Part shown: positions 7,309 through 54,323 of the stretch, in pieces | Layout of the letters: each line of letters starts with the position of its first letter | How positions within the stretch are numbered: position 1 is the stretch's first letter | Origin: Dehalococcoidia bacterium | GTDB taxonomy: Bacteria; Chloroflexota; Dehalococcoidia; DSTF01; RBG-16-68-14 | Direction: 5' to 3' | NCBI GenBank assembly: GCA_040882355.1 | Contig: JBBEBM010000042.1 | Span: 17,309 to 81,308, forward strand | Length of the DNA: 64,000 nucleotides | Translations under genes and position numbers: made by a program | Notes under the pieces: generated by a model | Told to the model about the DNA's origin: nothing | The model's database searches: none | The model's input: only the letters and a program-made list of their open reading frames with translations

Positions 7309-7758
7309 ATGTCACTCAAAGAACGGCTCGCCGCGGACCTGTACCATGCCATGCGTCAGCGCGAAGAACTCCGTCGCGATACGCTGCGCATGACGCTCGC
7401 GGCGGTCCACAACGCGGAGATCGAGGCGCGCGCGCAGCTCGACGACGAGGCCATCCTGAACGTGCTCTCGAAGGAGGCGAAGATGCGCCGCGAGAGCATC
7501 GAGGAGTTCAAGAAGGGCGGCCGTCAGGACCTCGTGGACAAAGAGACCGCTGAGCTCGAGATCATCTCCGCCTACCTCCCCCAGCAGCTCTCTCGAGACG
7601 AGATCGTCGAGGTGGCGCGCCAGGTCGTCCAGGAGACCGGCGCCAGCGGCCAGAAGGACATCGGCAAGGTGATGCCGGCGCTCATGCAGCGCCTCCAGGG
7701 CCGCGCCGACGGCCGCATCGCCAGCGAGGTCGTGCGGGAGCTGCTCTCGGGCTCGTAA
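7309..7758 (+). CDS. GatB/YqeY domain protein
   Basis: The 149-aa product has the typical YqeY layout and commonly follows rpsU. Confidence 0.85.
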   Translation: MSLKERLAADLYHAMRQREELRRDTLRMTLAAVHNAEIEARAQLDDEAILNVLSKEAKMRRESIEEFKKGGRQDLVDKETAELEIISAYLPQQLSRDEIVEVARQVVQETGASGQKDIGKVMPALMQRLQGRADGRIASEVVRELLSGS

Positions 7759-7799
7759 GCCTCGGGCACCGTAGCTGCGGGCTGGACGAAGGACATCTC

Positions 7800-7827
7800 G
7801 TAGGGGCGTTCAATTGAACGCCCCTAC
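7800..7827. repeat. perfect 28-bp palindrome GTAGGGGCGTTCAA|TTGAACGCCCCTAC; half-site repeated at 7887-7901
   Basis: Seen directly in the sequence. Confidence 0.6.
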
Positions 7828-7954
7828 CGTCGCGGTCAATCGAGCGTCACAGCTTCCCCGCGTATCCACCTCTGGCCGAAGACTGACGCTGAACGCCCCT
7901 ACCCCGCGGGTCAGGCTTTCCCGCCGCAAGCGGGTCCGCTTCAGACGTAAGCCT

Positions 7955-8023
7955 ACTGATCGACAAGGACCTGCTGATTCAGGTCGTGGCGGACAACCTG
8001 CGGCCGTACCCGCAGTAGCGCTC
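7955..8023 (+). pseudogene. orphan 3' fragment (LLIDKDLLIQVVADNLRPYPQ*) of a paralog of the lipoprotein gene at 33465-34100
   Basis: In-frame translation matches the C-terminus LIDKDLLIQVVAESLQPIPE* of ORF 33360..34100. Both are followed by a copy of the ~190-bp repeat element. Confidence 0.45.
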
Positions 8024-8039
8024 GCGGCGCACGCCGCTG

Positions 8040-8205
8040 CCACCAACCCCTTCGCGGTCTCTCCACCGCGGCCCTACCATAACCTCGACAATCCCGCGCG
8101 GGCATGCAGCGCCCACTGTTCTGGCGCCTGCTTCGCGGAATGGGAGCAATCGACGTGCTTCGCCAGAAGAAGGCGATTTTGCCAAACGTAATGACAAGAA
8201 ACCAT
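8040..8205 (-). repeat. copy A of a dispersed ~190-bp repeat family (core GGCGATTTTGCCAAACGT)
   Basis: It aligns with 34130-34330 in the same orientation and with 23690-24075 in reverse complement. Confidence 0.6.
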
Positions 8206-8346
8206 TGTCCGCCGGATGAAGGGCCCGCCCTTGCGGCCGAGGGCGAGGAAGGAGACGGGAGTCGAACTTCCAGCTTTGAAATCTCGAGCGGCGAGCCGTC
8301 GGACTGCCCCGTCCCGCGCGCCCTGCTATCATAGATCGAGACGCTG

Positions 8347-10551
8347 ATGTCAGGGCGAGCGACGAAGTCGTTGACGCCGCAGCAGTTGCTCCTCTTTGGA
8401 GCAGTGCTGACTGGTGCGCTGGTGCTGGCGCTCTTCCCGTTCTTTCCCCGCCAGCTCCGCGTCAACGAGGGCGATGTCGCCTCGCGCACCATCCGCTCGC
8501 CGCAGGGCGCCACCTTCGAGAGCGAAGTGCTCACCGACCAGGCCCGCGAGGCGGCGGCGCAGGCCGTGCCCGAGGTGCTGGTCTTCGACCCGAACGTCCG
8601 CACCGAACAGGCGGAGAAGCTCGCCACGGCAACGGAAGCCATCGCTCAAGTCCGCGACAACCCCGCGTTGGATGCGACCGTCAAGCGCGCACAACTGCTC
8701 GCCATCGAGAACTTGAGCGGCCTCTCCCGCGGCAGCATCGACACCGTCCTCACCCTGCCGCCCGACCGCTGGCAACGCGTCGCGGGTGAGGCCGAGCAGC
8801 TGCTGGGCCGGTCCATCGGCCAGTCGATCGCGCCGGACGGCGTCCAGGCCGCGCAGGACGGTCTCCTTGAGCAGGTCGGCCTCGCCCTCGCGGCCGACGA
8901 GGCAAACCTTGTCGCCGACCTCGTCCGGCCGCTCGTCGTCGCCACGCTCGTCGTTGACGACCAGGCGACCCAGGGCGCGAGAGGGACCGCCCGCCAGAAC
9001 GTCCAGCCCGTCCAGCAGACCATCGCCGAGAACCAGGTGCTCGTGCAAGAGGGCCAGCCCATCGACCCTACGGCCATCGAGGCGCTTGAGGAGGTTGGGC
9101 TGCTTACCTCTCGCGTCGAGTGGGACAAGCTGGGCGCCGTCGCCGTCGTCTCTGTACTGGCCGCGCTCATACTCACGCTTTACCTCCACCTCTTCCCCGC
9201 GCCCGGCATCACCTCGCCGCGCAACCTGGTCTTTCTGGCGCTGATCGTTGCCCTGCCCGTGCTCCTGGCGAAGGTCTACGTATCGCTCGTACTGCCCGAG
9301 GATGGGCGCCGCTTTCTCATCTACGTCCTTCCCTTCGCCGCCGCGCCCATGCTCGTCGCGACGCTCCTTGAGGCGCGTCTGGCGATCACGATCGCCCTCG
9401 TCCAGATGATGCTCCTCTGCTTCTCAGTCATCTACTTGCCGGACACCGCGATCTCCTCGTCGCTCCAGCCGCTCGAAGTCGGACGGCTGGCGTTGGCCTA
9501 CGGCCTCGGCGCCGTCGCCGGCGTCTTCGCGGTCCAGCGCGCCGACCGCCTCAACCAGTACGTGATGGGCGGCGTTATCGTCGCCATCGTCATGCTCGCG
9601 GGCCTCTTCGCCTTCTGGCTAATCGATCCCGATCGGCGTCCGCTGGACATCCCCTGGATGACCACCGCCGCCGCCATCAGCGGACTGGGCAGCGGCGTGC
9701 TCACGGCTGGCGGGTTCGCCGCCGTCGCCGCGTTCCTGGGCATCACAACGCGCGTCCAGCTCCTGGAGCTGTCGCAGCTCAACGCGCCGCTCCTCCGCCG
9801 CCTCCAGGACGAAGCCCCCGGCACCTTCCACCACAGCATCATCGTCGGCAACCTCGCCGAGCGCGCCGCCGACCTCATCGGCGCCGACGCCCTGCTCGTC
9901 CGTGTCGGCTGCTACTACCACGACATCGGCAAGGCGCTCCAGCCCGGTTTTTACATCGAAAACCAGCTCGGCGGCGCCAATCCCCACGATGAGATGGAGC
10001 CGCGAGACAGCGCCCGCGTCATCCGCCAGCACGTCCGCGGCGGACTAGAGCTGGCCCGCCGCCACGGCCTGCCGGTCAGCGTGCAGGCGTTCATCCCGGA
10101 GCACCACGGCACCAGGCTGATCGCCTACTTCTATCGCGTCGCGAGCCAGAGGGAGGGCAACGTCGACCAGAGCGCCTTCCGCTACCCGGGCCCGCGGCCG
10201 CAGACCCGCGAGACCGCCATCGTCATGCTCGCCGACTCCACCGAGGCGATGGTCCGCGCCAGCGCCGATCGCTCGCCGGAGCGCATCGACGTGCTGGTCG
10301 AAGAGGTGATCGCTGAGCGGTTGGCCGAGGGCGAGTTGGACGAATGCGACCTCACCCTGCGCGACATCCGCACGATCGCCGAGTCGTTCAAGCAGACGCT
10401 TCGCGGCGTCTACCACCCGCGCATCGCCTACCCCGAGGCGACGGAGCAGGAGCGAAGGGCGCTCATCGGCCGCTTCCGGCCGGGACGCCGCGCCGCCCAG
10501 CCGCTCCCCCAGGCGCCCGGCCCGTCCCAGGAACAGCGCCCAACCTGGTAA
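8347..10551 (+). CDS. 7TM receptor with intracellular HD hydrolase domain (PgpH/YqfF-like)
   Basis: It has an N-terminal extracellular region, a 7TM block and a C-terminal HD domain ([18 protein letters not shown]...HHGT). Confidence 0.8.
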
Positions 10552-17000: not shown

Positions 17001-17333
17001 CTGATAAGGACAATCGAATACCCCGCCTGCCGAATCCCTAAGTGGAACGGGGGACCCACCGAGAACCGGGGTGAATTTCTCCTGACGATCAGGGGAAATG
17101 GCCAGTCCCTTCAGGCCAAACCCGTCAGCTAACCTCGTAGGCATCTGAGGGAAGGCGTCAGCCAGCGTAAACGCGGGACGAGGGCGGCGCTCTCATATTG
17201 CGCTCCTACGTATCCAGCGCGGTTCTGACGCAAGGCCTTCACCTCTCGGTCGTGTCCCCATTCGGTTAAGCCGCAGCAGATATGTGCGGCGCTTCTGGAT
17301 GCCAGGCGGAAGCACAGAGGAGGTGCGCCCCAC

Positions 17334-20245: not shown

Positions 20246-20308
20246 AACCTTTTCGCATCCCTCACACCAGCTCCTTCACCTTCTCCGCCGGCGACCGCGT
20301 GACGCGGC

Positions 20309-20672
20309 TTACTTCTCTTGTTCCAGGCGCTCCAGCAGCCACATGCGCGCGAGGGTAGACGCGCCCATCCCCTTCTTGCGTCCCGCCTTCGGGAGTAGAT
20401 CGATTCGTCTTCGCATCGAGGCGCACTCCCGGGATGTGCCCGAGCGGCCGCGTCACCGTCAACCGCTTCAATTCCTTCCACTCGCCGTAGTCCAGCGGGC
20501 TGTGCGTGTCCCGGAACTCCGCCTCTTCTTCGCGCGACGTGAACTCAAGGACTTCGCCGCTCACTTTGGGATGTGTCCGATGCCAATTCCGAGCTTCTTC
20601 TTCGCCTGCCCGATCTTCGTGGTGACGTTGTCCTGGTGCGGACCGAAGCGTGCGAGCTGCTTCTTCAGCCAC
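20309..20672 (-). pseudogene. BrnA-like (RHH/CopG-type) antitoxin gene, copy 1, disrupted by a 1-nt indel
   Basis: It has the N-terminal SREEEAEFRDTHSPLDYGEWKE motif. Shifting frame by one restores a C-terminal RHH, ...KKGMGASTLARMWLLERLEQEK*, ending at TAA 20309-20311. Confidence 0.5.
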
Positions 20673-20967
20673 CTGCCGCTGTAGGCAAGCTCATAGAGCG
20701 TCCAGATAGCATCTTCGGTTCGGCCAAGGGACTGCGCCAGGTTCGCTACATTCGCTCTCGTAGGTACAAGCGACAAGACCAGTTCGATCTCCCCTCGCGT
20801 GTAAGGATCAAAGGCCTTTGGCACTCCTTCTCGTTTGGTTTTCATGGAACTGTCACCTCCTCCAAGGTCGACATCTGCAATCTGGGCAGGATTGTACCAG
20901 ACCAGTGGTCACCCTCACACCGTCTCCTTCACCTTCCCCGCCAGCGACCGCGTGAGCGAGCGCGGCC

Positions 20968-21252
20968 TACTTCTCGTCTTCCAGGCGCTCGAGGAGCCGC
21001 ATACGCGCGAGGGTCGACGCGCCCATCCCGCTTTTTGCGTCCCGCCTTCGAGAGTAGATCGATCGTCTTCGCGTCGAGGCGCACGCCCAGGATGTACCCG
21101 AGCGGCCGCGTCACCGTCAACCGTTTCACTTCCTTCCACTCGCCGTGGTCCAGCGGACTGTGCGTGTCCCAGAACTCCGCCTCTTCTTCACGGGACTTGA
21201 AGCGCGGGATCTTCTTCGGCTTAGGCCCCGGTTTCACGCGTGGTGCAGCCAT
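20968..21252 (-). pseudogene. BrnA-like antitoxin gene, copy 2, frameshift at an A5 run
   Basis: MAAPRVKPGPKPKKIPRFKSREEEAEFWDTHSPLDHGEWKEVKRLTVTRPLGYILGVRLDAKTIDLLSKAGRKK is followed, after a +1 shift at CGCAAAAAG, by GMGASTLARMRLLERLEDEK* (stop 20968-20970). Confidence 0.5.
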
Positions 21253-21261
21253 CCTCAGCGC

Positions 21262-21657
21262 TTAGACACCCTCGCTCGGTTCGCAGACGCGGACGGTTCC
21301 ATCTGGTTCGACGAAGAGCCAGTAGAGCGGCAGGGCCTGCCGCACCCTCGGGCTCACCTTCCTACACTGATGGAGGAATTGCGGGATAGCTGGGACCGCA
21401 AGAGCATACCGACTCGTTTCATCCCTCATTTGCTGCAGGATTTGTCCCAGCCCAGTGCGAAAGTCGAGTCCGATGTCAGCGGTCTGCCCTTTGGCCTCTA
21501 CTACCCATCGCTCTCCTGTTGTAGGGTGGACGCTCGTAAGATCCGCTGTTCCTTCTGAGGTGGGACGAAAGCCGGCCTTGAGGAAATGCGCTTCGATCGA
21601 TTGTTGAACGAATCCCTCATTCGGGTACTCGGTGCCACGACGATAGGTCCGGCCCAT
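21262..21657 (-). CDS. hypothetical protein with a PD-(D/E)xK nuclease-like motif
   Basis: The product contains ...GTADLTSVHPTTGERWVVEAKGQ... (D...EAK). It sits directly upstream of BrnA-like copy 2 and is co-oriented with it. Confidence 0.35.
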   Translation of the reverse strand: MGRTYRRGTEYPNEGFVQQSIEAHFLKAGFRPTSEGTADLTSVHPTTGERWVVEAKGQTADIGLDFRTGLGQILQQMRDETSRYALAVPAIPQFLHQCRKVSPRVRQALPLYWLFVEPDGTVRVCEPSEGV

Positions 21658-21661
21658 CAGT

Positions 21662-23542
21662 CTACACCAGCTCCTTCACCTTCTCCGCCAGCGAGCGCGT
21701 GAAGCCGACGGTCGACGCGATCTCATCGATGGGGGCGTCGCGGATGCCCTTCACCGAGCCGAACTTGCGCAGCAGCGCCCGCTTCCGCTTCGGCCCGACG
21801 CCCGGCACGGCGTCGAGCGCCGACTGCACGGCCGCCTTCTTGCGCAGGCCGCGGTGGTAGGTGATCGCGAAGCGATGCGCCTCGTCGCGGACGCGCTGCA
21901 CCAGGTAGAGCGCCTGCGACGTCCGCGAGAGCACGATCGGCTCCGTCATGTCCTTGACGAACAGCTCCTCGTTGCGCTTCGCCAGGCCCGCCGCCGGGAT
22001 CTGCTCGACGCCCAGGTCGCGCATCGCGTCGAGCGCGGCGTGGAGCTGCCCCTTCCCACCATCGACGATCAGCAGGTCGGGCAGCGTCTGGAACGACGCG
22101 TCCTCGCGCCGGGCCGCGCGGCCCCCCGCCCGTGCGCCGTCATCCTCGCTCGAGCCGTCGCGCTCAGGCGGGGCGGTCGCGCGGCGGAAGCGGCGCTTGA
22201 GCACTTCCGCCATCATGGCGAAGTCGTTCGAGCCTTCGACCGTGCGTATCTTGAAGCGACGGTACTCCTGCGGGCGCGGCTGGCCGTCGGTGAAGACGAC
22301 CATGCTACCGACGGCGTTCGTGCCCTGGATGTTCGAGATGTCGTAGCACTCGATGCGGCGCGGCGAGTCCGGGAGGTTCAGCTCCTCCTCCAGCTCGTCG
22401 AGCGCGGCCTGCGTCTTCGACGTGTCGGCGAGCCAGCGCGCTTTCGCCTGTTCGAGCGCCTCGCGGGCGTTCGCCTCGGCCATCTGAACGAGTTTGCGCT
22501 TCTCGCCGCGCTCGGGCACCAGCAGCCGGACGACGCCACCGCGACGCTCCGTGAGCCACGACGCGAGCAGCTCTGACTCGGGGACGGCGACCGGCAGCAG
22601 GATGCGCTTCGGGATGTAGGTGGCCGAGCCGTAGAACTGCTTGAGGAAGCTGGCGAGCACCTCCGCGTCGGGCTCGTCCTTCGCGCCGTCGAGCGTGAAG
22701 TGGTCGGTGGCGACGAGCTTCCGGCCGCGCACGAAGAGCGCCTGCACCATCGCCTCGGTGTCCGTGCGGGCGAGGCCGAAGACGTCTTCGTCCGCCGGCT
22801 TCGTCGACGCGACGGTCTGCGTCTCGGTGACGCGTTCTATCGCGCGGAGCTGGTCGCGCAGGCTGGCGGCGCGTTCGAACTCCAGCGCTTCGGACGAGGC
22901 GTCCATCTGCGTTCGCAGCGCGCGCACGACTTCGTCGGTGCGGCCTTCGAGGAACATGATCGTCTGGCGGATCACCTCGGCGTACTCCTCCTGCGTGGCG
23001 AACGACGAGCACGGAGCGATGCAGCGGTGGATGTAGTACTCCAGGCACGGCCGAGGGTCGTCGCCGGTGATCACCTTCGTGCACGTTCGCCAGGGGAAGA
23101 GCTTCTTGGTGATGTCCAGCGTCTTGCGCACCGAGCCGGCGCTGGCGTACGGCCCGAAGTAGCGCGCGCCGTCCTTCTCCACGCGACGCGTGATGTAGAC
23201 GCGAGGGAACGGGTCCGTGAGGTCGACCTTCAAGTAGGGGTAGTGCTTGTCGTCCTTGAGGCGCACGTTGTAGAAGGGCTGATGGCGCTTGACGAGCGTC
23301 GCCTCCAGGAAGAGCGCCTCCTGCGCCGTGTGGGTGACGATGTACTCGAAGTCGGCGATGGCGGCGCGCAGGCTGGCGAGCTTCGCCTCCATGCTGTGGG
23401 CGGCGCCGAAGTACGAGCGCATCCGGCTGCGCAGGTTCTGCGCCTTGCCGACGTAGACGACCTGGCCGCGGTCGTTGCGGAAGACGTAGACGCCGGGGCG
23501 CTGCGGCACCGACTTGAGCCGTTCGACCAGCGGTTCGGGCAT
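21662..23542 (-). CDS. uvrC: excinuclease ABC subunit C
   Basis: It has an N-terminal GIY-YIG domain (GVYVFRNDRGQVVYVGKAQNLRSRMRSYF), the UvrC centre and a C-terminal HhH. The product ends ...SLAEKVKELV. Confidence 0.92.
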   Translation of the reverse strand: MPEPLVERLKSVPQRPGVYVFRNDRGQVVYVGKAQNLRSRMRSYFGAAHSMEAKLASLRAAIADFEYIVTHTAQEALFLEATLVKRHQPFYNVRLKDDKHYPYLKVDLTDPFPRVYITRRVEKDGARYFGPYASAGSVRKTLDITKKLFPWRTCTKVITGDDPRPCLEYYIHRCIAPCSSFATQEEYAEVIRQTIMFLEGRTDEVVRALRTQMDASSEALEFERAASLRDQLRAIERVTETQTVASTKPADEDVFGLARTDTEAMVQALFVRGRKLVATDHFTLDGAKDEPDAEVLASFLKQFYGSATYIPKRILLPVAVPESELLASWLTERRGGVVRLLVPERGEKRKLVQMAEANAREALEQAKARWLADTSKTQAALDELEEELNLPDSPRRIECYDISNIQGTNAVGSMVVFTDGQPRPQEYRRFKIRTVEGSNDFAMMAEVLKRRFRRATAPPERDGSSEDDGARAGGRAARREDASFQTLPDLLIVDGGKGQLHAALDAMRDLGVEQIPAAGLAKRNEELFVKDMTEPIVLSRTSQALYLVQRVRDEAHRFAITYHRGLRKKAAVQSALDAVPGVGPKRKRALLRKFGSVKGIRDAPIDEIASTVGFTRSLAEKVKELV

Positions 23543-23689
23543 GGCGATTCCATGGTAGCGAATCGGCCCTCACCCCCAACCCCTCTCCCGCCTTGCGGGC
23601 GAGGGGAGCGGGCCGCGGCCAGAGGGCGCTGCTGATTCTCATCCTGAGCTTGTCGAAGGGTGCCCTCCCTCGGCCCCAGTCCCGCGCGT

Positions 23690-24075
23690 TTTGTGGCAGT
23701 ACGTTTTGCAAAATCGCCTTTTCTGGCGAAGCACCTCGAATCACCTCCTGCGCGGGAGTCTGGCGGGCGGGCGCTGAGCGAAGCACGCCCTCGCCGGCTT
23801 GTCGAGTATGAGGATACGGGCGCGGCGGGAGATCTCGAAGGGGGCGGCGGCAGCGGCAATGCCCGATGCCTTAACCGCGCGTCTTGTGTCATTACGTTTT
23901 GCAAAAGCGCCTTTTTCGAGCGGATCGCCTCGAATCACCCCGCGCGCCGAATCCAGCGCACCGGCGCCGAGCGCTGTACGCCCTCGCCGGGTTGTCGAGT
24001 GTGAGGATACGGGCACCGCGGGAGAGCGCGAAGGGGGTGGTGGCGCGGTGCTTGACATCCGCCGGCGCGGTGGTA
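23690..24075 (+). repeat. two tandem copies (~193 bp each) of the dispersed repeat family (cores ACGTTTTGCAAAATCGCC / ACGTTTTGCAAAAGCGCC)
   Basis: Copy 1 (~23690-23882) and copy 2 (~23883-24075) align with each other and, in reverse complement, with 8040-8205 and 34130-34330. Confidence 0.7.
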
Positions 24076-24122: not shown

Positions 24123-27100
24123 GTGCGACTCTTGCATATCGTAGCGGCCGTAGCTGGTGCGGTTCTGATCGTAGCCGTTATCCTAAGTGCTTCGTCACGC
24201 CCGGATGCCATTCTGGCCTCTGGCGCAACTGAGATCTCCGCCGGTGGAAGTCACACCTGTGCACGGACAGCGCTTGGAGACGTGAGGTGCTGGGGCCAGA
24301 ACCTGGTAGGACAACTAGGGAACGGTTCGTTCTCGGGGCCAACAGACGCGAATCCAATTCCGGTGGAGGTGTTGGGGCTGGAAGGCAGCGCAGTGATGGT
24401 GTCCGCCGGCGGACTCCACACGTGCGCTGTCACGGTGATCGGCGGCGTGAAGTGCTGGGGCGACAACTTTAGCGGGCAGTTAGGCGATGGCACAACACTG
24501 GAGCAACAGCCCCCTGGCCGGGCGATTCCCGTGGACGTGGTGGGCCTCGGCAGCGGCGTTGAGACTGTCAGCGCCGGCGGCTCGCACACGTGCGCTCTAA
24601 CCGCGGAGGGAGGAGTGAAGTGCTGGGGTGGAAACGAATTTGGACAACTAGGTGATGGAACGACCACTAATCGAGCCTTACCGGTAGATGTGGAAGGGCT
24701 CAGCGAAGGCGCAACGGCAGTGGCGGCGAGTGGTTTCCACAGCTGTGCCCTCATCGCGTCGGGAGGCGTCAAGTGCTGGGGCAATAACCAGGATGGGCAA
24801 CTGGGGAACGGAATGTTTGCTAACAGTGCGATCCCCGTTGACGTGGCCGGGTTAGATGATCCAGTGGTCAAACTAACAGCCGGGTTGGGCTATGATGGCC
24901 ACACCTGCGTCTTAACCGCAAAGGGAGGTGTGCGGTGCTGGGGTGGGAACGAGAATGGACAATTGGGTGATGGAACGACGATTGACAGAAGTACACCAGT
25001 TGGCGCGGCGGGACTTGCAAGCAGCGTGACCGGCGTGTCCGCGGGCGGCGGGGGATCCATCGCGCCGTTTGCAGGACACACGTGTGCGATCACCGAGTCG
25101 GGTGGGCTGAAGTGCTGGGGTGGGAACAACTCTGGCCAGCTGGGCGACGGAACGACTACGCAGCGCCTGGTTCCAGTCGATGTGACAGGATTGAGCGCAG
25201 ACGTGTCTCGCATATCGGCTGGAGGCGGCGGCGGATGGTCGCCGTACAGCGGCCACACATGCGCGGTAGCGACTGACGGCCGCGTGAAGTGCTGGGGCGG
25301 GAATCAGTATGGACAGTTGGGTGATGGTACGGATACCGCTTCCACCTCGCCGGTGGAGGTGGTTGGATTCAGTGTGAAGCCGACGGCTACGCCGACCGGA
25401 ACGTCTACACCGTGCGGGCCAGAAGGATGTCCTACACCGACGACGACCTCGACGCCTACAGCTACGAGAACGCGGACGCCTACGTCCACGCCGACCAATT
25501 CAGCCACTCCTACCATGACGGCCAGTCCCACAGGCTCAGCGACCAGCACTGCGACGAGGACGAACACGAGGACCGCTACGTCTACTCCATCACCGACCGG
25601 AACCCGAACACCCACGCCAACACGGACACCATCCGCCACGCCGACGGCAACCCCTGTGAAGGAGGGCTTGAAGGTGAAGGTGCTGGCACCGAATTTCGTG
25701 AGCCCGGGCCAGACCTTCAATTACGTGGTCACGTATACCAATGGTGCAACTTCTCCTATAGCCGATGCGAAGCTGATCAGCCGGCTTCCATCTACGGCCA
25801 CGTTCAATTGGTCGTGGCCGCCGGGAACCTACGATGCAGAATCGCGTACCGTCTCTTGGGACCTTGGAGCAATCAGCCAGGAGAGCAGCGGATCGTTTTC
25901 GGTTAGTGTCGTGACAAATTGGGGCCTGTCGGTGGGCACAGTCCTGGAGAACCTGGCTAGCGTGGAGCAACAGGGAGCTCCTGCGGAAGCGAGCTCTGCG
26001 CACCAGTCGACAGAAGTCGCTAGCGCTGGTGCGTTTCGGCTGCCGTTTGTTGGCCGCACGAGAGCGTCGACCTACGCTGGTCATGGCGAAGCTCTGGACT
26101 TCTGGATGCACCGCCCATCTGTGGACAACTCATGGAACGGCGAAGTCAGGGCAGCGCAGCGCGGTGTGGTCGTGTACGCGCAGATGAATGTCGCAGGTGG
26201 TTCGAGCTCCGCCTGCCCAGGTAGACCCGTTGGTTACGGCAATCTCGTGGTCCTGGAGCACCACATCAAGGGCGTTCGGTACACCACCCGATATGCGCAC
26301 CTCAGCACCTTCAACGTTAGAGTGGGGGAACAGGTACCGCAAGGGTACCTAGTAGGCACCTACGGCGATACTGGCTGTACTTTTTCGGCGACAGGTGACG
26401 CGAGACACCTTCACTTCGAGCTTCGGAAGGGCGGTGCATTCTGTCCACCACATCCCACGGCCTGCCCGTCAGTCTTCAGTGGCTCTGAGCTGGATATTAC
26501 CGGACTAAGCGGGATAACGAGCGTCGGCAGCCCAAGCGGGGGCGGAGATGCAACGGGGGCTCCGCTTGCTGCTTCGGGCCAGCTCAATCAGACACGGATA
26601 GTGGTGGCCAGCGATCCTAATGCGAAGCATGCCGACCGTGAGTTCGCTGAGCATGGTGACACGGTAAACTTCACTATCGAATTCGAGAACGAGGGTGAGG
26701 GCATCGCTTTCGGTGTCAATGTTGTGGACACGCTGGACCAGGACCTCGATGTTTCTACTCTACTGCTCCCGGAGGGAGAAGGCGGAATCTACGACGCTGC
26801 CACGAGGACAATCGCGTGGGACTTAGGTGAGGTGGGGCCAGGCGAAGGCGGGGAGTTGCACTTCATCGCCAACGTGCACGGCGATGCAGAATGTGGCGAC
26901 GAGGTGATGAACTCGGCGACCGTGAACTTCCCGAGCGTACCGGAAGTGACGACTACGAATGGCGTTTCCGTGGTGGTCATCGGTTCCGGGTGCGACCTCG
27001 ATTCCGACACCTTGCCTGATCTGATAGACAACTGCTCGATAATGTCGAATGGTCCTGCTCAAGCCGCCATTCCTGGCGTAGGGAACCAGACCGACAGTGA

Positions 27101-27707
27101 CAGTGACGGGGATGGAGACGCCTGCGACAATGACGACGACAACGACGGCATGCTGGATGCTTCCGAAGTCTTCTACAGCTGCATGGACCGCGTTGTGGCC
27201 GACGCTTCACTTGACTACGATGGCGATGACCTCGCCAACGCAGCCGAAATGAGCTTGTGGAAGACCTTTGGACTGAGCACGGATCCTTGCGACGCGGACA
27301 CGGACAGCGATGGATGCCTCGACGGGCGAGAGGTACTCACTCAGGCTGGCACGCAGGTGTCCGGCGGCCGCCGGGATCCCCTGTACTTCTGGGACTACTT
27401 CGACGTGCCGACAGGCTTGCCGCCGACGCGCGACGGTGCCGTGAGTGCGGGAGATGTTGCTGGGGTGGTGGCCCGGTTCGGCTCAAACGACGATGCGCCC
27501 GGCACTTTCGATCGCGGGAGCGATCCCCTGTCCGCTCCGCAGGCGCCAGTGCAGCCCTCGGGCGCCCGGGCCAACTACCACCCCGTGTACGACAGAACCG
27601 GCGTGACGCCAGGCGGCGAGACTTGGGATCTCCTGCCGCCGAACGGTTCTATAACGTCGGGAGACCTTGCGGCGGTTGTGGCACAGTTCGGCCACAGTTG
27701 CATCTAG
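24123..27707 (+). CDS. secreted multidomain protein: signal/TM, 7x RCC1 repeats, T/P linker, DUF11-like, M23 peptidase, DUF11-like, TSP3-like Ca-binding repeats, dockerin-like C-terminus
   Basis: RCC1 repeats follow CWGxNxxGQLG(D/N)G. The T/P linker is at nt ~25390-25650. The M23 domain has HLHFEL (nt ~26090-26450). Asp-rich DxDxDGxxD repeats precede the C-terminal ...WDYFDVPTG...AGDVAGVVARFG...SGDLAAVVAQFGHSCI. Confidence 0.7.
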   Translation: MRLLHIVAAVAGAVLIVAVILSASSRPDAILASGATEISAGGSHTCARTALGDVRCWGQNLVGQLGNGSFSGPTDANPIPVEVLGLEGSAVMVSAGGLHTCAVTVIGGVKCWGDNFSGQLGDGTTLEQQPPGRAIPVDVVGLGSGVETVSAGGSHTCALTAEGGVKCWGGNEFGQLGDGTTTNRALPVDVEGLSEGATAVAASGFHSCALIASGGVKCWGNNQDGQLGNGMFANSAIPVDVAGLDDPVVKLTAGLGYDGHTCVLTAKGGVRCWGGNENGQLGDGTTIDRSTPVGAAGLASSVTGVSAGGGGSIAPFAGHTCAITESGGLKCWGGNNSGQLGDGTTTQRLVPVDVTGLSADVSRISAGGGGGWSPYSGHTCAVATDGRVKCWGGNQYGQLGDGTDTASTSPVEVVGFSVKPTATPTGTSTPCGPEGCPTPTTTSTPTATRTRTPTSTPTNSATPTMTASPTGSATSTATRTNTRTATSTPSPTGTRTPTPTRTPSATPTATPVKEGLKVKVLAPNFVSPGQTFNYVVTYTNGATSPIADAKLISRLPSTATFNWSWPPGTYDAESRTVSWDLGAISQESSGSFSVSVVTNWGLSVGTVLENLASVEQQGAPAEASSAHQSTEVASAGAFRLPFVGRTRASTYAGHGEALDFWMHRPSVDNSWNGEVRAAQRGVVVYAQMNVAGGSSSACPGRPVGYGNLVVLEHHIKGVRYTTRYAHLSTFNVRVGEQVPQGYLVGTYGDTGCTFSATGDARHLHFELRKGGAFCPPHPTACPSVFSGSELDITGLSGITSVGSPSGGGDATGAPLAASGQLNQTRIVVASDPNAKHADREFAEHGDTVNFTIEFENEGEGIAFGVNVVDTLDQDLDVSTLLLPEGEGGIYDAATRTIAWDLGEVGPGEGGELHFIANVHGDAECGDEVMNSATVNFPSVPEVTTTNGVSVVVIGSGCDLDSDTLPDLIDNCSIMSNGPAQAAIPGVGNQTDSDSDGDGDACDNDDDNDGMLDASEVFYSCMDRVVADASLDYDGDDLANAAEMSLWKTFGLSTDPCDADTDSDGCLDGREVLTQAGTQVSGGRRDPLYFWDYFDVPTGLPPTRDGAVSAGDVAGVVARFGSNDDAPGTFDRGSDPLSAPQAPVQPSGARANYHPVYDRTGVTPGGETWDLLPPNGSITSGDLAAVVAQFGHSCI

Positions 27708-27939
27708 GGGGCCACGCCCCACACCCGGCGCGAGGCGCCGCCACCGCCCCCTTCGCGCTCTCTCGGCCCGGCCCTACCCTAGACCTCGATAACTAGTCGT
27801 GGGCATGCGCCCGATTCGGGCGCCTCTCAGGTTCGCTCGCGGAGGCCGACTTACGTCATGACCAGCAAAGAGGCGCTCCTGCAAAGATCAATCAAACGCC
27901 CGCCCAGATTCACCACCGGCGCCACGCGGGCCCGGCCAG

Positions 27940-28000
27940 CTTCGGAGGTCGTCCCGTCAGAAAGGCGCTTTTGCCAAACGGCCTGGTCAAACAGAGAGCC
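27940..28000 (-). repeat. partial copy C of the dispersed repeat (GGCGCTTTTGCCAAACGG core)
   Basis: It aligns with the core of the other copies. Confidence 0.45.
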
Positions 28001-28137
28001 TGCCCGCCGCAGGAGGGCTTGCAGGGCAGGGTGGTGGGCGCGACCCGCGACCCGCGAGCCGCGACCCGGGGGCGCTGGTGGTCGCTCGGCGCGCTGTGCG
28101 CTAGACTGACGGCAACCTGGCGCCAAGGGAGGTTCGT

Positions 28138-28746
28138 GTGATGGGATTCCTGAGCTTCTTCGTCGCATCGTGGATCGGGCGGATCATCGGGCTGCTGCTG
28201 TCGCTGGTGATCCTGGCGGTCGCCTTCTTCGGGATCATCGGCGTCCTCGCCGCGACCGGCGGGCCCGGCGCCTGCACGCCCGGAGGCGGCCCAATCACCG
28301 TGAGCGACGCCAACGCCGCCGCGTTCCAGACCAAGTGGGACGCCTTCGCCGGCACGCTGAACAACGGCCAGCCGGCGACCGTCACCTTCAACGAGAGCGA
28401 GGTCTCGTCTCGCGCGAACCAGTGGGCGCGCGACGAGTCGATCGACTTCGACGCCGACATTCTCGTCTGCATCCACGACGGCTCCGGCGAGGCGACGGCT
28501 ACCTTCGGAGGCGGTTGGGTGGACTCAGAGGTGTCGGTCACCGGCACCGTGACCATCGAAGGCACGCACCCGCAGGCCCACGTCGACGACATCGAGCTCG
28601 GCAACGTGCCCGGCTTCATGATCGGGCCGTTCGAGGGTCGGATCGAAGACGCGATCCAGGAGGCGCTCGACATGATCGACCTCGACGAGCACACCTACAC
28701 CGTCACGCTCACCGAAGGCTCCGCGCAGATCGACGGCACGCCGTAG
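28138..28746 (+). CDS. hypothetical N-terminally membrane-anchored protein with a ~170-aa extracytoplasmic domain
   Basis: An N-terminal TM helix (FFVASWIGRIIGLLLSLVILAVAFFGIIGVLAA) is followed by a beta-rich soluble domain. Confidence 0.5.
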   Translation: MMGFLSFFVASWIGRIIGLLLSLVILAVAFFGIIGVLAATGGPGACTPGGGPITVSDANAAAFQTKWDAFAGTLNNGQPATVTFNESEVSSRANQWARDESIDFDADILVCIHDGSGEATATFGGGWVDSEVSVTGTVTIEGTHPQAHVDDIELGNVPGFMIGPFEGRIEDAIQEALDMIDLDEHTYTVTLTEGSAQIDGTP

Positions 28747-28887: not shown

Positions 28888-30585
28888 TCAGGCGCAACTG
28901 TGGCCGAACTGCGCGACGGAGGCGGCGATGTCGCCGGCGGTGATCGAACCGTCGGCGGGCTGGAGGTCCCACGGCTCGCCACCCGGCAGGATGCCGCCGC
29001 GCTCGTACGCGCTGTGGTAGGCGGGCGCGGGCGGCGGCGGCGAAAGCGGGTCGCCCGGCTTGCCCGTCGCGCCGAAGCGCGCGACGACGCCCGCGATGTC
29101 GCCGGCGGTGACGGCGCGGTCGCGTGCGGGCGGCGGAGCGCCCGTTGGCACGTCGAAGAAGTCCCAGAGGTTGTTGGGGTCGCGTCGCCCGCCCTCCGTG
29201 GCATCGAGGCCCAGCTCCTGCGCGTCGCTGCAGCCGTCGCCGTCGCTGTCTTTGAGCAGGACAGGCGCCGGCAGCGGGCTGTCGGTCGTCGAGCCGTCGC
29301 CGAGCTGGCCGAAGGCGTTATCGCCCCAGCAGAGGACCGCGCCCGACGCAATCGCGCAGGTGTGCAGCGTACCGGCCGCAACAGCTTCGACGCCGCTGAG
29401 CGCAACGCAGGGCAGGTCGGCGCAGACGGCCACGGGGTTGTGCCAGTCGGTCGTGGTGCCGTCGCCGAGCTGGTTGCTGGCGTTGCGGCCCCAGCAGCGC
29501 GCGCCGCCGTTCGAGAGCGCCGCGCACGAGTGCTCGTCGCCCAAGCTGAGGCCGTCGATGCCCGTCAGCGCGACCCCGCCCGCGCAGTTCGTGCCCACGC
29601 CCGTCGCGCAGACGTCGAAGGGGTTCGCCCGCTGGAACGCCGTGCCTTCGCCGAGCTGGCCGCGGAAGTTCAGGCCCCAGCACTTCGCGCCGCCGTTCGA
29701 CATCAGCGCGCAGCTATGCCTGCCGCCCGCGTCGATGTCGCTCACGCCGGAGAGCAGAGCGCAGCCTGCGCCGGAGCCGAACTGACAGACGTCCGTGGGA
29801 CTGGGGCGCGGGTGAACGGCGGTGCCGTCGCCGACCTGGTTCTCGGAGTTCTGTCCCCAGCACTTCACGCCGCCGTTCGACATCAGCGCGCACGTGTGGT
29901 CGATGCCCGCGGCGATATCGACCACGTCCCCGAGGGCGGCGCAGGTAGCGGCGCTTCCCGTGGCGCAGACCGTCGCCGGCAGCGCGACGTCGAAGGCAAG
30001 GCCGTCGCCCAGCGCGCCCGCGGTGTTATCGCCCCAGCAGCGCGCTTCGCCGCTCGAGAGCGCCGCGCACGAGTGGTCCTTGCCCGCTGCGATCGCCGCG
30101 CTGCTGACACCATCCATGCCGGACACGTGGATCGGCAGCGGGTGCGCGTTCGTGTCCTGCGTGCCGATGCCGAGCTGCCCCTGGTTGTTCGCGCCCCAGC
30201 ACATCACGCCGTTGTCCGTGTTGAGGGCGCACGTGTGGAAGCCGCTCTCGCCGCCCGCCGCGATGGCGATGATGCCGGTGAGCGACCCACCGCCGGCGCA
30301 GCCCGCCCCCGAGCCGCTGGCGCAGACCTCCACGGGCGACGTGCGCATCGCGGCCGAGGTGCCGTCGCCGAGCTGGCCCCAGGTGTTGTCGCCCCAGCAC
30401 TTGACGGTGGTGTTGTCGAAGAGGGCGCAGGTATGGGCGCCGCCCGCCACGATCTCGATGACCTGGGCGCCTGTCGCAGCGGCTTCCGGCGGGCCGCCGG
30501 GCCGTCCGAGCGCGAGGCCCGCCGCCAGCGCCGCTATCGCGACGCCGAACGCCACCCCCACCAGCACCCATCGATTCACAAGCAT
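28888..30585 (-). CDS. secreted RCC1-repeat protein (7 repeats) with a TSP3-like repeat and the same dockerin-like C-terminal module
   Basis: It has an N-terminal signal/TM, CWGDNTxGQLGDG repeats, and the C-terminus DSDGDGCSD...LWDFFDVPTG...AGDIAGVVARFG...AGDIAASVAQFGHSCA, which is homologous to the C-terminus of 24123..27707. Confidence 0.7.
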   Translation of the reverse strand: MLVNRWVLVGVAFGVAIAALAAGLALGRPGGPPEAAATGAQVIEIVAGGAHTCALFDNTTVKCWGDNTWGQLGDGTSAAMRTSPVEVCASGSGAGCAGGGSLTGIIAIAAGGESGFHTCALNTDNGVMCWGANNQGQLGIGTQDTNAHPLPIHVSGMDGVSSAAIAAGKDHSCAALSSGEARCWGDNTAGALGDGLAFDVALPATVCATGSAATCAALGDVVDIAAGIDHTCALMSNGGVKCWGQNSENQVGDGTAVHPRPSPTDVCQFGSGAGCALLSGVSDIDAGGRHSCALMSNGGAKCWGLNFRGQLGEGTAFQRANPFDVCATGVGTNCAGGVALTGIDGLSLGDEHSCAALSNGGARCWGRNASNQLGDGTTTDWHNPVAVCADLPCVALSGVEAVAAGTLHTCAIASGAVLCWGDNAFGQLGDGSTTDSPLPAPVLLKDSDGDGCSDAQELGLDATEGGRRDPNNLWDFFDVPTGAPPPARDRAVTAGDIAGVVARFGATGKPGDPLSPPPPAPAYHSAYERGGILPGGEPWDLQPADGSITAGDIAASVAQFGHSCA

Positions 30586-33464: not shown

Positions 33465-34100
33465 ATGCCACCGTCGCGTCCTCATGTCAAGGCCGTTGCC
33501 CTGCTGTTACCGCTAGCGGTCGTCGCTGCTGCTTGGGGCCTCGGGTGCACCGAACCTTCTGGACAGTCCGCTCAGAACCCCTCCGACCCCCGAACGAGTG
33601 CCGATTTTCGGGACCCGGTGGACGACGCGCAGAACGCCGGCGTCTCCGTCTATTGGCTGGGACCGGAGTTTGATGCGGGCGGCCTTCACTTCGCCGTATA
33701 CCCCGAAGCTGACTTCACTGACGACACCGATAGCCGCCATCCGGGGCTGAGCCTGGACTACTTCGCTCGCACTGCGGAAGGCAGCGTGCGCAGTGGCCTC
33801 GAGATGTACTCGAAGGCCGGCAACGGCCCACAGATCATGTTGGAACGAGCGTTGGCTGTGGATGGCGCGCTGGCGGACGAAGTTCAGGTTGGCGGGTGGC
33901 CTGCCCAACTCGTCACTCTGCCATCGCCGTCACGGCCCGTGAACAAGCTGTACCTGTTCGTTGACGTGGGCGACACGGTGGCCATCGTTCAGGCGGCCTC
34001 TGGTGAAACCGGCGTGCCCGGCGCGGACCCCAATCCTCTCATCGATAAGGACCTGCTCATCCAGGTTGTGGCGGAGAGCCTCCAGCCCATCCCAGAATAG
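33465..34100 (+). CDS. hypothetical lipoprotein (signal peptide LLLPLAVVAAAWGLGC)
   Basis: It has a lipobox. ATG 33465 is the likely start (ORF track: 33360). A fragment of its C-terminus is duplicated at 7955-8023. Confidence 0.5.
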   Translation: MPPSRPHVKAVALLLPLAVVAAAWGLGCTEPSGQSAQNPSDPRTSADFRDPVDDAQNAGVSVYWLGPEFDAGGLHFAVYPEADFTDDTDSRHPGLSLDYFARTAEGSVRSGLEMYSKAGNGPQIMLERALAVDGALADEVQVGGWPAQLVTLPSPSRPVNKLYLFVDVGDTVAIVQAASGETGVPGADPNPLIDKDLLIQVVAESLQPIPE

Positions 34101-34129
34101 CGCTCTCCGCGGCCGTGCCATCCGACCGT

Positions 34130-34330
34130 TCGCGCTCTCCCCCCGCGCGCGTATCCTCACACTCGACAACACCGCGAGGGTACGCAGCGCTCAGCGCACG
34201 GGTGCCAGACTCGCGTGAGAGAGGAGATCCGGAGTGTTTCGCCCGAGAAAGGCGATTTTGCCAAACGTACTGACAGGTTTCGCGCGGCTGCACAGCGGCC
34301 ACGCCGGACAATCGGGCATGGGGGCGGGCC
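34130..34330 (-). repeat. copy D of the dispersed ~190-bp repeat family
   Basis: It is the reverse complement of the 23883-24075 copy and is in the same orientation as 8040-8205. Confidence 0.6.
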
Positions 34331-34379
34331 GGGGCCGTCGGGCTTCCAGCTTCCAGAGACCAGGGCGGGGCGGTGTGGG

Positions 34380-35211: not shown

Positions 35212-35823
35212 GTGGCCCCTGCGGGCCGCGCGAGGGGTATCGTGAGCGAAGACGAGACGTTCGCACCCGCTGACGACGAAGGCGAGGCGTTGCTGGTCGC
35301 TCGCGCGAAGCAGCGCGAGCCGTCCGCCTGGGCCGAGCTGTACGACGCCCACTACTCGAAGCTCTACCGCTACTGCTACGCCCGCACGGGCGACGAGGCC
35401 ACCGCGGCCGACCTGGCGTCGAAGGTGTTTCTGGAGGCGCTGGAGGGCATCGACCGGTACGAGTTCCGGGGGCGCCCGCTGCTCGCGTGGCTGTACCGCA
35501 TCGCCCGGAACGTGCTCACGGACCACCTGCGCGCCCGCGAGCGCGAGTCGAAGGCGCTGGAGCAGGCGGCAAGCTTGAGCGACCGGCACGACCCGGGCCC
35601 AGACGCCCACGTAGCCGACCGCGAGGACCTGCTGGCCGCGATGAAGCAGCTCACCGAAGAGCAGCAGCAGGTGGTGGCGCTGCGCTACTTCGCCGGATGC
35701 AGCACCCCTGAGATTGCGCGCCTGATGCGACGAAGCGAACGGGCGGTCTACTCGCTGGAGGCGCGCGCGCTGGCATCGTTGCGGCGGCTGCTAGAGCCGG
35801 AGCAGGCGGAATCGGCGGCCTGA
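35212..35823 (+). CDS. RNA polymerase ECF-type sigma factor
   Basis: Sigma-70 regions 2 and 4 are present (FLEALEGIDRYEFRGRPLLAWLYRIARNVLTDHLR; HTH at the C-terminus). Confidence 0.85.
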   Translation: MAPAGRARGIVSEDETFAPADDEGEALLVARAKQREPSAWAELYDAHYSKLYRYCYARTGDEATAADLASKVFLEALEGIDRYEFRGRPLLAWLYRIARNVLTDHLRARERESKALEQAASLSDRHDPGPDAHVADREDLLAAMKQLTEEQQQVVALRYFAGCSTPEIARLMRRSERAVYSLEARALASLRRLLEPEQAESAA

Positions 35824-52964: not shown

Positions 52965-54141
52965 GCGCCTCCTGGCCAAACAGGGCATCGCCACGCCGAA
53001 GGGTGGGCTGGCGAAGACGCCCGCCGAAGCGGAGCGCATCGCCGGCGACGTCAGCGGGCCGGTGGTGCTGAAGTCGCAGGTGCTCTCCGGCGGCCGGATG
53101 AAGGCGGGAGGCGTGAAGTTCGCCGACACGCCCGCGGAGGCGAAGGCCGCCGCGGCCGACATCCTCGCGCTCGAGATCAGCGGGCAGCTCCCCGTCGGTG
53201 TGCTCGTCGAGGCGAAGGCGCCGGTGCGCCAGGAGTTCTTCCTGGGCGTGACCTACGACGCGCTCGCCAAGCAGCCGGTGGCGATCTTCAGTGACATGGG
53301 CGGCATCGACATCGAAGAGGTCGCCGAGCAGCACCCTGACCACGTCGCCAAGGCGCACTTCTCGTCGCTGCTGCCGTTCAGCGACTACCGGATGAAGGAG
53401 CTGGTCTCGTCGCTCGGCATCGGCGGCGGACAGCTCACGGCGCTGACGGGGTTTGGCGCGCGGCTGGCCCGCGCGTTCCTCGATCGCCACCTGACCCTCG
53501 CCGAGATCAACCCGCTCGCCCAGCTTGAGGACGGCTCGTTCGTCGCTCTCGACTGCCACGCGGACATGGAGGAAGAGGCGCGCGACCGCCACGGCGAGCT
53601 GCTCGCCGAGTTCGGCATCGACGCGGACGAGACGCGCCAGGGGCGCCCGCCGACCGACTTTGAGCGGCGCGGCGCGCAGGTCGACGCGGTCGACCACCGC
53701 GGCGTCGCGGGGCGCGTCGTCGAGTTCGAGGGCGACCTGGGCTGCGTGATCGGCGCCGGCGGCGGCAGCCTCACAATCTTCGATGCGATCCGCCGCCACG
53801 GCGGCCACCCGGCGAACTACTGCGAGATCGGCGGCAATCCGAGCGTGCGCAAGGCGTGCGAGCTGACGAAGCTGATCGTGAGCCAGCCGGGCGTGAAGAA
53901 GATCGCCGTGATCATGAACGTGGTGAGCAACACCCGCGTCGACATCGTCGCGCGCGGAGTGGTGAAGGGCGTTGTCGAGTCGGGCTTCGACCCGGCGGAG
54001 AAGATCGCGATCTTCCGCATCCCGGGCGCGTGGGAGGGCGAGGGGTTCAAGATCCTCCAGAAGTACGGCGTGGAATACTGCGACCGCACGGTCTCGATGT
54101 CGGAGGCGGCGCGGCGCGCCGTCGAGAAGCTTCGGGCATGA
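52939..54141 (+). CDS. sucC: succinate--CoA (or malate--CoA) ligase beta subunit, ATP-grasp
   Basis: MRFYEFEAKRLLAKQGIATPKG...VLKSQVLSGGR... matches the SucC/MtkA family. Confidence 0.85.
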   Translation: MRFYEFEAKRLLAKQGIATPKGGLAKTPAEAERIAGDVSGPVVLKSQVLSGGRMKAGGVKFADTPAEAKAAAADILALEISGQLPVGVLVEAKAPVRQEFFLGVTYDALAKQPVAIFSDMGGIDIEEVAEQHPDHVAKAHFSSLLPFSDYRMKELVSSLGIGGGQLTALTGFGARLARAFLDRHLTLAEINPLAQLEDGSFVALDCHADMEEEARDRHGELLAEFGIDADETRQGRPPTDFERRGAQVDAVDHRGVAGRVVEFEGDLGCVIGAGGGSLTIFDAIRRHGGHPANYCEIGGNPSVRKACELTKLIVSQPGVKKIAVIMNVVSNTRVDIVARGVVKGVVESGFDPAEKIAIFRIPGAWEGEGFKILQKYGVEYCDRTVSMSEAARRAVEKLRA

Positions 54142-54323
54142 CTGTCATGCTGAACGAAGTGAAGCATCTGGCCCTCGAGTTCGACGGCCCGTCCATCGTG
54201 AGGGGCCAGACCCTTCGCTTCGCTCAGGGTGACAATGGGGCCTACGGCGTCGAATACTGCGACCGCACGGTCTCGATGTCAGAGGCGGCGCGGCGTGCCG
54301 TCGAGAAGCTGGCCAAGGACTGA
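54139..54323 (+). CDS. small ORF (61 aa) whose last 24 codons duplicate the sucC 3' end
   Basis: Its ATG overlaps the sucC TGA. Nt 54241-54323 are ~90% identical to 54060-54141 (..YGVEYCDRTVSMSEAARRAVEKL..). Confidence 0.3.

Follow-up and report, generated by a model that had tools for sequence, protein, structure and literature searches.

A stranded lipoprotein gene tail and its companion repeat in the yqeY spacer of a Dehalococcoidia genome: a probable lineage-specific insertion

In the 64,000-nt stretch of Dehalococcoidia DNA analysed here (the window, from a MAG with locus tags WEE64_; the run SRR27977658 has matching contigs), the last codons of a lipoprotein gene stand in the spacer behind yqeY without the gene that they should end, and a copy of an intergenic repeat follows them. 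The same succession of gene end and repeat is found behind an intact lipoprotein gene elsewhere in the window. How did such a gene end come to lie where it does, and did the repeat have a part in bringing it there? The features on which the question turns are as follows.

7309..7758, + strand: yqeY, with a GatB/YqeY domain (Pfam PF09424, E=5e-50), the upstream neighbour
7799..7954, no strand: native spacer 3' of yqeY, with a 28-nt palindrome and two tandem versions of one unit
7956..8018, + strand: orphan tail, the 3' end of a lipoprotein gene without its body; 21 codons, read in the frame from 7953, and the stop codon TAG at 8016-8018
8023..8213, + strand: repeat copy A, behind the orphan tail (nhmmer E=8e-50)
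8214..8346, no strand: remaining spacer before the 7TM-HD gene, with a possible weak third repeat module (CTTCCAGCTT, 8266-8275)
8347..10551, + strand: 7TM receptor with HD hydrolase, PgpH-like (Pfam PF07697, PF07698, PF01966), the downstream neighbour
33465..34100, + strand: intact lipoprotein paralogue B, lipobox LGC, whose tail (34038-34100) ends in AESLQPIPE and the stop
34105..34291, + strand: repeat copy B, directly 3' of the intact lipoprotein stop codon (nhmmer E=5e-53)

The orphan tail and the lipoprotein family

The frame of the orphan tail, CTA CTG ATC GAC ... CAG TAG from 7953 to 8018, translates as LLIDKDLLIQVVADNLRPYPQ followed by the stop. A preliminary description of this DNA had placed the coding piece at 7955-8023 and called it a paralogue of the C-terminus of the lipoprotein encoded at 33465-34100. 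We found the coding tail there, although it ends earlier, at the stop codon, and the relationship stands far above chance: the tail forms an ungapped repeat (D16) with the 3' end of the intact gene, 77% identical over 74 nt, and tblastn with family members matches the window at 7941-8012 with E values down to 3e-6. The likeness might have been restricted to the ~20 codons; instead, blastn aligns 7956-8196 with 34038-34275 at 73% over 244 nt (E=1.4e-30), crossing the stop codon and extending into the repeat. The repeat does follow both tails in the same orientation as described, at a distance of about 5-20 nt by the nhmmer envelopes and not at the 30-40 bp first given.

Everything that should precede the tail is missing. 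Local alignments to five family genes all begin abruptly at 7947-7957, no homology was found upstream of that point in any frame, and the stretch immediately 5' is unrelated to family genes. Neither a signal peptide with lipobox nor the ~150-aa beta-sheet domain is present at the locus. Searching the window by tblastn with all family proteins returned no other pieces of a lipoprotein gene, leaving one orphan in 64 kb. By these alignments, what stands at the locus is a fragment and not a gene. There are in-frame stops just 5' of the tail, and the sole in-frame start is a GTG at 7986 that leaves 10 codons; the tail is thus an untranslatable, true orphan.

To place the fragment in its family, we searched 1.84 billion cluster representatives with a family profile (E<=1e-3). 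This gave at least 203 clusters at 50% identity, mostly of about 200 aa (the product of paralogue B has 211 aa), for which no Pfam match was found. Nearly all of the 203 align to the very last profile position, and the C-termini share ...NPL[IL]D..LL..V..NLRPYP[EQ]; clusters P0001-P0155 make up the LRPYPE-tail lipoprotein family. The orphan tail carries this same C-terminal motif with an immediate stop. Because the motif is common to the family clusters, the orphan has, in LRPYP, the ending that is usual in the family, and LQPIPE, with which the intact gene in the window ends, is the derived form. An AlphaFold model of paralogue B (mean pLDDT 83) renders the tail as a confident terminal helix (195-205) that packs on the beta-sheet domain. 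As the orphan lacks a usable start and corresponds merely to this helix, its 21 codons could not make a protein alone. Structural matches of the fold are weak and PsbP/Mog1-like (best E=3e-3, TM 0.3), and we therefore assign the lipoprotein no function. Between tails of intact genes there are 6-10 third-position changes, against 0-2 at codon positions 1 and 2; the conservation thus reflects selection on the protein and not on a nucleic-acid signal. An ECF-type sigma factor gene (35212-35823, +) lies one gene from the intact lipoprotein gene and repeat copy B.

An insertion between yqeY and the 7TM-HD gene

With YqeY homologues as anchors, we compared the site with three relatives (L087, P0161 and P0159) in which the order rpsU, yqeY, long co-directional gene is kept. 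In the window, yqeY and the 7TM-HD gene are 588 nt apart. The spacer measures 192 nt in the P0161 contigs (YqeY 81% identical) and 113 nt in the P0159 contigs (83%), and L087 (89%) offers at least 252 nt after yqeY, to the contig end. The empty-site DNA was read in L087 alone, P0161 and P0159 being compared by gene coordinates; from its position and size, we infer that the long downstream gene in these two is the 7TM-HD orthologue.

L087 matches the window at 89% across yqeY and remains collinear exactly through 7954: its positions 1348-1448 align with window 7799-7889 at 73.5%, and 1381-1443 with 7891-7954 at 87.5%. Past the equivalent of 7954 it continues with 150 nt of unrelated sequence that holds neither tail nor repeat. 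The left junction of the insertion is accordingly sharp, at 7954/7956. Directly abutting it is a tandem duplication of a native spacer unit (7799-7889 and 7891-7954) that is single in L087. On the right, window 8214-8346 and L087 1444-1580 gave no alignment (z=0.2, compared with z=17 for the left flank).

The lineages that lack the insert do not form one clade, being as distant from one another (78-84%) as from the window, so that a single gain in the window lineage is more parsimonious than repeated losses. Since the relatives' spacers are short and L087 is without both elements, tail and repeat would be a lineage-specific insertion and not an old resident gene. That the two belong together as one block, as the preliminary description supposed, is borne out by their both lying in DNA absent from the relatives. 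Its proposal that a member of the gene family was partly deleted at 7955 does not agree with spacers of 113, 192 and at least 252 nt, or with an L087 sequence that matches to 7954 and then lacks tail and repeat.

The spacer upstream of the junction has a feature of its own, a perfect 28-nt palindrome, GTAGGGGCGTTCAATTGAACGCCCCTAC (GTAG...CTAC), at 7800-7827, which lies 42 nt past the stop codon of yqeY; a third arm is found 61 nt further on (7889-7902). The palindrome is kept in L087 (1348-1376) and occurs only at this one site in the window. By its sequence, it resembles either a U-less terminator or the GTAG-tagged REP palindromes, a group of palindromic repeats (PMC3733652), as it begins with GTAG and ends with CTAC. 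What sets it apart is that it is resident in the spacer, is present in the insert-free L087 as well, has a single site in the window, and lies outside the 170-190-nt repeat. A c-di-AMP riboswitch (17018-17158, +; Rfam RF00379, 87.8 bits), the only Rfam match passing in the window, shares the window with the PgpH-like 7TM-HD gene that stands immediately downstream of the inserted block.

We next consider where the tail came from. Clusters P0009 and P0010 end in LIDKDLLIQVVADNLRPYPE, to which the orphan is identical at 19 of 20 residues. Its nucleotides match the P0010 gene (L086) at 58/63 positions (92%) and the tail of paralogue B at 48/63 (76%). Of the five positions at which it differs from L086, four are synonymous third-position changes, so that the fragment has decayed very little. 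The donor was thus a lipoprotein gene of the P0009/P0010 type and not the gene at 33465-34100. Repeat copy A is likewise the most divergent copy in the window: its identity to B, C1 and C2 is 64-66%, and these three reach 74-79% among themselves. With a donor of another type than B and a divergent repeat, the A-B pair is not one datable duplication of B, and the earlier reading of the pair as a dated duplication event falls away. A donor locus that joins a P0009/P0010-type gene to an A-type repeat was not found; the sole P0010 locus with DNA is without a full repeat behind the gene.

The intergenic repeat and its contexts

The repeat is ~170-190 nt long, with long forms up to 280 nt, and is present in five copies in the window, two of them preceded by lipoprotein tails. 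The copies other than A and B, and the boxes of copy A, are these.

23680..24056, - strand: repeat copies C2 (23872-24056) and C1 (23680-23867), in tandem (nhmmer E=1e-51 and 2e-54)
27733..27984, + strand: repeat copy D, long form (nhmmer 27733-27885 and 27951-27984)
8038-8044, 8051-8056 and 8075-8080: boxes TGCCACC, TTCGCG and, after an 18-nt spacer, TACCAT of copy A
8084-8091 and 8170-8189: box CTCGACAA and core AAGGCGATTTTGCCAAACGT of copy A

Copies C2 and C1 lie upstream of uvrC and are co-oriented with it, and copy D lies behind an RCC1-repeat gene; a lipoprotein tail is found at neither place. Just downstream of uvrC, 20259-21702 holds two to three tandem ~650-bp units, 84-91% identical (families D8, D12 and D17), which are probably tandem paralogous small genes. 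At 24123-27707 (+), 29293-30490 and 61493-61756 there are large RCC1-repeat proteins, one with a peptidase-like C-terminal region, and long 12-nt-periodic Thr/Pro-rich linker repeats. Another direct repeat in the window, of 68 nt (54064-54131 and 54243-54310; 96% identical, 179 nt apart), lies at the end of an ATP-grasp (succinyl-CoA-synthetase-like) gene.

Beyond the window, an HMM built from four copies matched L069 and L070, each with a copy upstream of a lipoprotein paralogue and pointing away from the gene, as well as L021, with one copy, and L060, another Dehalococcoidia MAG, with one copy between a LuxR-like gene and scpA. A scan of genome contigs with the repeat core gave 67 matches, nearly all due to chance, the true copies being that of L060 and perhaps that of L021. 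In viral contigs, scans for the core, for the 5' box and for the tail gave chance matches or none, and a degenerate tail pattern found only unrelated proteins containing DLLIQVVA in metagenome contigs. Behind the stop codons of lipoprotein genes the picture varies: L070 has a 47-nt 5' piece of the repeat directly behind the stop, L086 a 12-nt look-alike with no full copy, and no repeat copy stands behind the genes of L069 and L086. In L085, a copy identified by eye follows a chimeric ORF from about 655. In all, a copy is found within 100 nt at four of the five family loci for which there is DNA. This association of repeat and lipoprotein gene is suggestive, and we grade it no higher, since repeats are places at which short metagenome contigs are apt to break. 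The preliminary description offered the repeat as a 3' UTR or terminator of the gene family. It is not one private to the family, as is seen from three of the five window copies, which lie elsewhere (uvrC twice, RCC1 once), from the L060 copy, from the upstream copies of L069 and L070 that point away from the gene, and from the bare gene ends of L069 and L086.

The copies share a series of boxes, in the order TGCCACC, CCCCTTCGCGCTCTC, (G)TATCCT, CTCGACAAC and, ~100 nt later, GAAAGGCGATTTTGCMAAACG; the family signature can be written TGCCACC / TTCGCG-17-TATCCT / CTCGACAAC / AAGGCGATTTTGCMAAACG. In copy A the boxes are complete and ordered and the core is an exact match, with a spacer of 18 nt. 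The pattern TT[CTA]G[CA]G, 17 nt (18 in A), TA[TC][CTG][CA]T is found in 10 of 10 copies that have the 5' part, and the spacer sequence is variable. This spacing resembles the -35/-10 geometry of a sigma-70-type promoter; of the consensus, the two hexamers keep no more than 3/6 and 4/6 positions, which is below the threshold of a promoter scan. An extra internal module of ~100 nt (GATCAATCAAACG...) is common to copy D (27733-27984) and the upstream copy of L070 (809-1062, -), and this long form at two different loci implies that the repeat family has subfamilies. Copy B (34281-34367) and the L070 upstream copy (about 685-775, -) have yet another module in common (z=6.9), which lies farther downstream (..GGGGC.TCCAGC.TCCAG.G.CCAGG); near copy A (8253-8285, with CTTCCAGCTT at 8266-8275) it is weak and not significant (z=1.6). 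Between the repeat core (AAGGCG..AAACGT) and the start codon that follows it there are 158 nt for A (8189 to 8347), 159 nt for C1 (23701 to 23542) and 157 nt for D (27981 to 28138), with unrelated intervening sequences. This spacing fails in L060 (about 73 nt) and L070 (about 220 nt), and may be a coincidence.

Several identities for the repeat were tried and set aside. It is not coding sequence, as the frames are broken by indels between copies, and a protein search with concatenated six-frame repeat translations (spurious ORF calls) returned nothing. A structured RNA or hairpin-type MITE was dropped: RNAalifold on both strands showed no supporting covariation, and folding z-scores were unremarkable, from -1.5 to +2.2 for seven short copies and D on both strands, with lower values for the L070 upstream copy (-2.3/-3.1). 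The repeat has no Rfam match, permissive scans of copies A, C1 and C2 giving noise only (best 19 bits, E >=0.36). A scan for intrinsic terminators found none; the window copies have a 5-bp TCGCC/GGCGA hairpin ahead of TTTTG, which L060, L021 and L069 do not share. Terminal inverted repeats were found neither in copy A nor in common among the copies, and by its sequence the repeat would not qualify as a MITE on that count. Literature searches on Dehalococcoidia/Chloroflexi intergenic repeats yielded no description of such a repeat, the GTAG-REP paper being the sole relevant item. We conclude that the repeat family is modular and non-coding and, by these searches, not described before.

Small intergenic repeats are familiar from other bacteria. 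The pneumococcal BOX, enterobacterial ERIC/IRU and neisserial Correia elements are non-coding, multi-copy intergenic elements of 100-300 nt that lie near gene ends; they are modular, with optional internal modules, and some have promoter-like boxes. By analogy, the present repeat may be of their kind in size, non-coding nature, intergenic position, modularity and promoter-like boxes. It differs from them in that it has neither terminal inverted repeats nor a stable hairpin, its sequence is unrelated, and its host belongs to another phylum; with the left junction mapped, no target duplication is recognisable.

How tail and repeat may have reached the spacer

We favour ordinary recombination over transposition as the process that brought tail and repeat to the spacer, and hold this to be the probable course of events. 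In outline, an insertion of at least ~250 nt would have entered the spacer between yqeY and the 7TM-HD gene, carrying a P0009/P0010-type tail and one repeat copy. The block would be a copy of the 3' end of a lipoprotein locus with the repeat directly behind the stop, as at 34038-34291. Either a break took up a fragment with part of the locus, through microhomology joining or template switching, or the whole gene came in with the repeat and afterwards lost its 5' ~190 codons by deletion; illegitimate or microhomology joining would have produced the left junction at 7954/7956. The tail would now be a functionless relic and the repeat a passenger, or a mere supplier of homology. We infer the arrival of the block in one piece, the mechanism of joining and the absence of function.

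Three things fit recombination: the abutting tandem duplication, which makes the junction look like messy repair, a right flank that does not align, and the want of transposon features, as a scan of 44 window proteins found no transposase, integrase or reverse transcriptase. The right flank is also counted against this explanation, as is the missing donor locus. In L085 (153-599), the ORF P0008 fuses ~65 N-terminal FecCD permease residues in frame to the last 83 lipoprotein codons. It may be a second 5'-truncated fragment, or the product of a chimeric metagenome assembly or of a plain deletion. As a second such fragment with a repeat, it could speak against the favoured view and for a recurrent, repeat-driven process.

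Such a process is the substance of the alternative in which the repeat is a non-autonomous mobile element, and the mobilised segment sometimes starts 5' of its normal end and carries a gene tail along (flank transduction, of a one-ended or rolling-circle kind). Gene-piece capture from the flank is known from ISEcp1 and IS91/ISCR (one-ended/rolling-circle), from L1 3' transduction, and from Helitron and Pack-MITE elements, in all of which an identified transposase or reverse transcriptase is encoded or serves the element and the ends are defined. The likeness to this class, by analogy, would be that a copy of the repeat takes along part of the gene next to it at the donor site. The difference is that no such enzyme was found among the window proteins scanned, the ends are not defined, and a single event shows no mechanism. 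The repeat does occur at several unrelated intergenic sites, in tandem, in long and short forms and in other Dehalococcoidia; the tail-repeat block is an insertion relative to related genomes; and two independent 5'-truncated fragments of different length (21 codons here, 83 in L085) are each followed by a repeat in the same orientation. These points are offset by a repeat with neither terminal inverted repeats nor excess folding stability on either strand, by the lack of a transposase or reverse transcriptase among the 44 window proteins, by the one sharp 5' boundary that the other repeat copies have in common, by the chance that L085 is a chimeric metagenome contig or a simple deletion, and by 3'-truncated fragments being equally common in protein data. 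We consider this explanation unlikely.

Rather more broadly, and at slightly longer odds still, the repeat might be an undescribed Dehalococcoidia element that is either mobile with its upstream flank or a set of dispersed small transcription units, marked by the promoter-like boxes TTCGCG-17-TATCCT and a conserved 3' box.

It is more unlikely still that an ancient resident paralogue stood here and lost its body by deletion, so that the tail would be an in-situ remnant and the repeat a 3' UTR or terminator conserved in the family. The deletion bias of bacterial genomes would suit this idea, as would the repeat or its first ~45 nt behind the stop in B, L085 and L070, the 12-nt look-alike of L086, and the copies within 100 nt at four of five family loci. 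The idea must contend with insert-free spacers in three separate lineages and a left junction that is sharp at 7954, with repeats that have no lipoprotein gene at C1, C2, D and L060, with repeats missing behind the L069 and L086 genes, and with the lack of a conserved terminator hairpin.

That the tail is kept for a function, as a silent recombination cassette or as part of an RNA made from or into the promoter-like boxes of the repeat, seems very improbable to us. Its 21 codons are nearly undecayed (19/20 residues as in P0009/P0010), the stretch just upstream is unrelated, and the boxes have a -35/-10-like geometry; but a recent event explains the low decay equally well, the tail lies upstream of the boxes and thus outside that transcript, a cassette of the family's most conserved part would add no diversity, and there is a single orphan in 64 kb. 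Finally, an orphan copy of an extreme gene 3' end that includes the stop has the look of a template repeat, with B as the variable repeat of a diversity-generating retroelement, an idea that the mismatch spectrum excludes to near certainty, as the mismatches are not adenine-specific (2/15 at A positions of the orphan, 5/15 at those of B). Nor does the tail vary within the family, of which it is the invariant part, and no reverse transcriptase was found among the window proteins scanned.

Under the recombination that we favour, the orphan tail itself is a standard 5'-truncated pseudogene remnant, a piece of ordinary genome wear. It shares with the known bacterial remnants a short untranslatable piece, intact paralogues elsewhere, a sharp breakpoint and a duplication at the junction; unlike them, it does not lie at the site of the ancestral gene, and was inserted together with neighbouring non-coding DNA. 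The site affords a clean comparison of filled and empty states, by which tail and repeat came jointly into a spacer between housekeeping genes. The family to which the tail belongs, with at least 203 clusters, no Pfam model and an invariant C-terminal helix, is uncharacterised. The tail has also pointed to an uncatalogued intergenic repeat of Dehalococcoidia whose boxes have a spacing typical of promoters. If the repeat is a small transcription unit, it would start about 7 nt past TATCCT and end near GGCGATTTTGC. Should the repeat prove to be mobile or a transcription unit, the stranded tail would be a first trace of its manner of spreading, and the site would be suited to the study of its movement and of its effect on neighbouring genes, here that for a PgpH-like, c-di-AMP-related protein and elsewhere uvrC.
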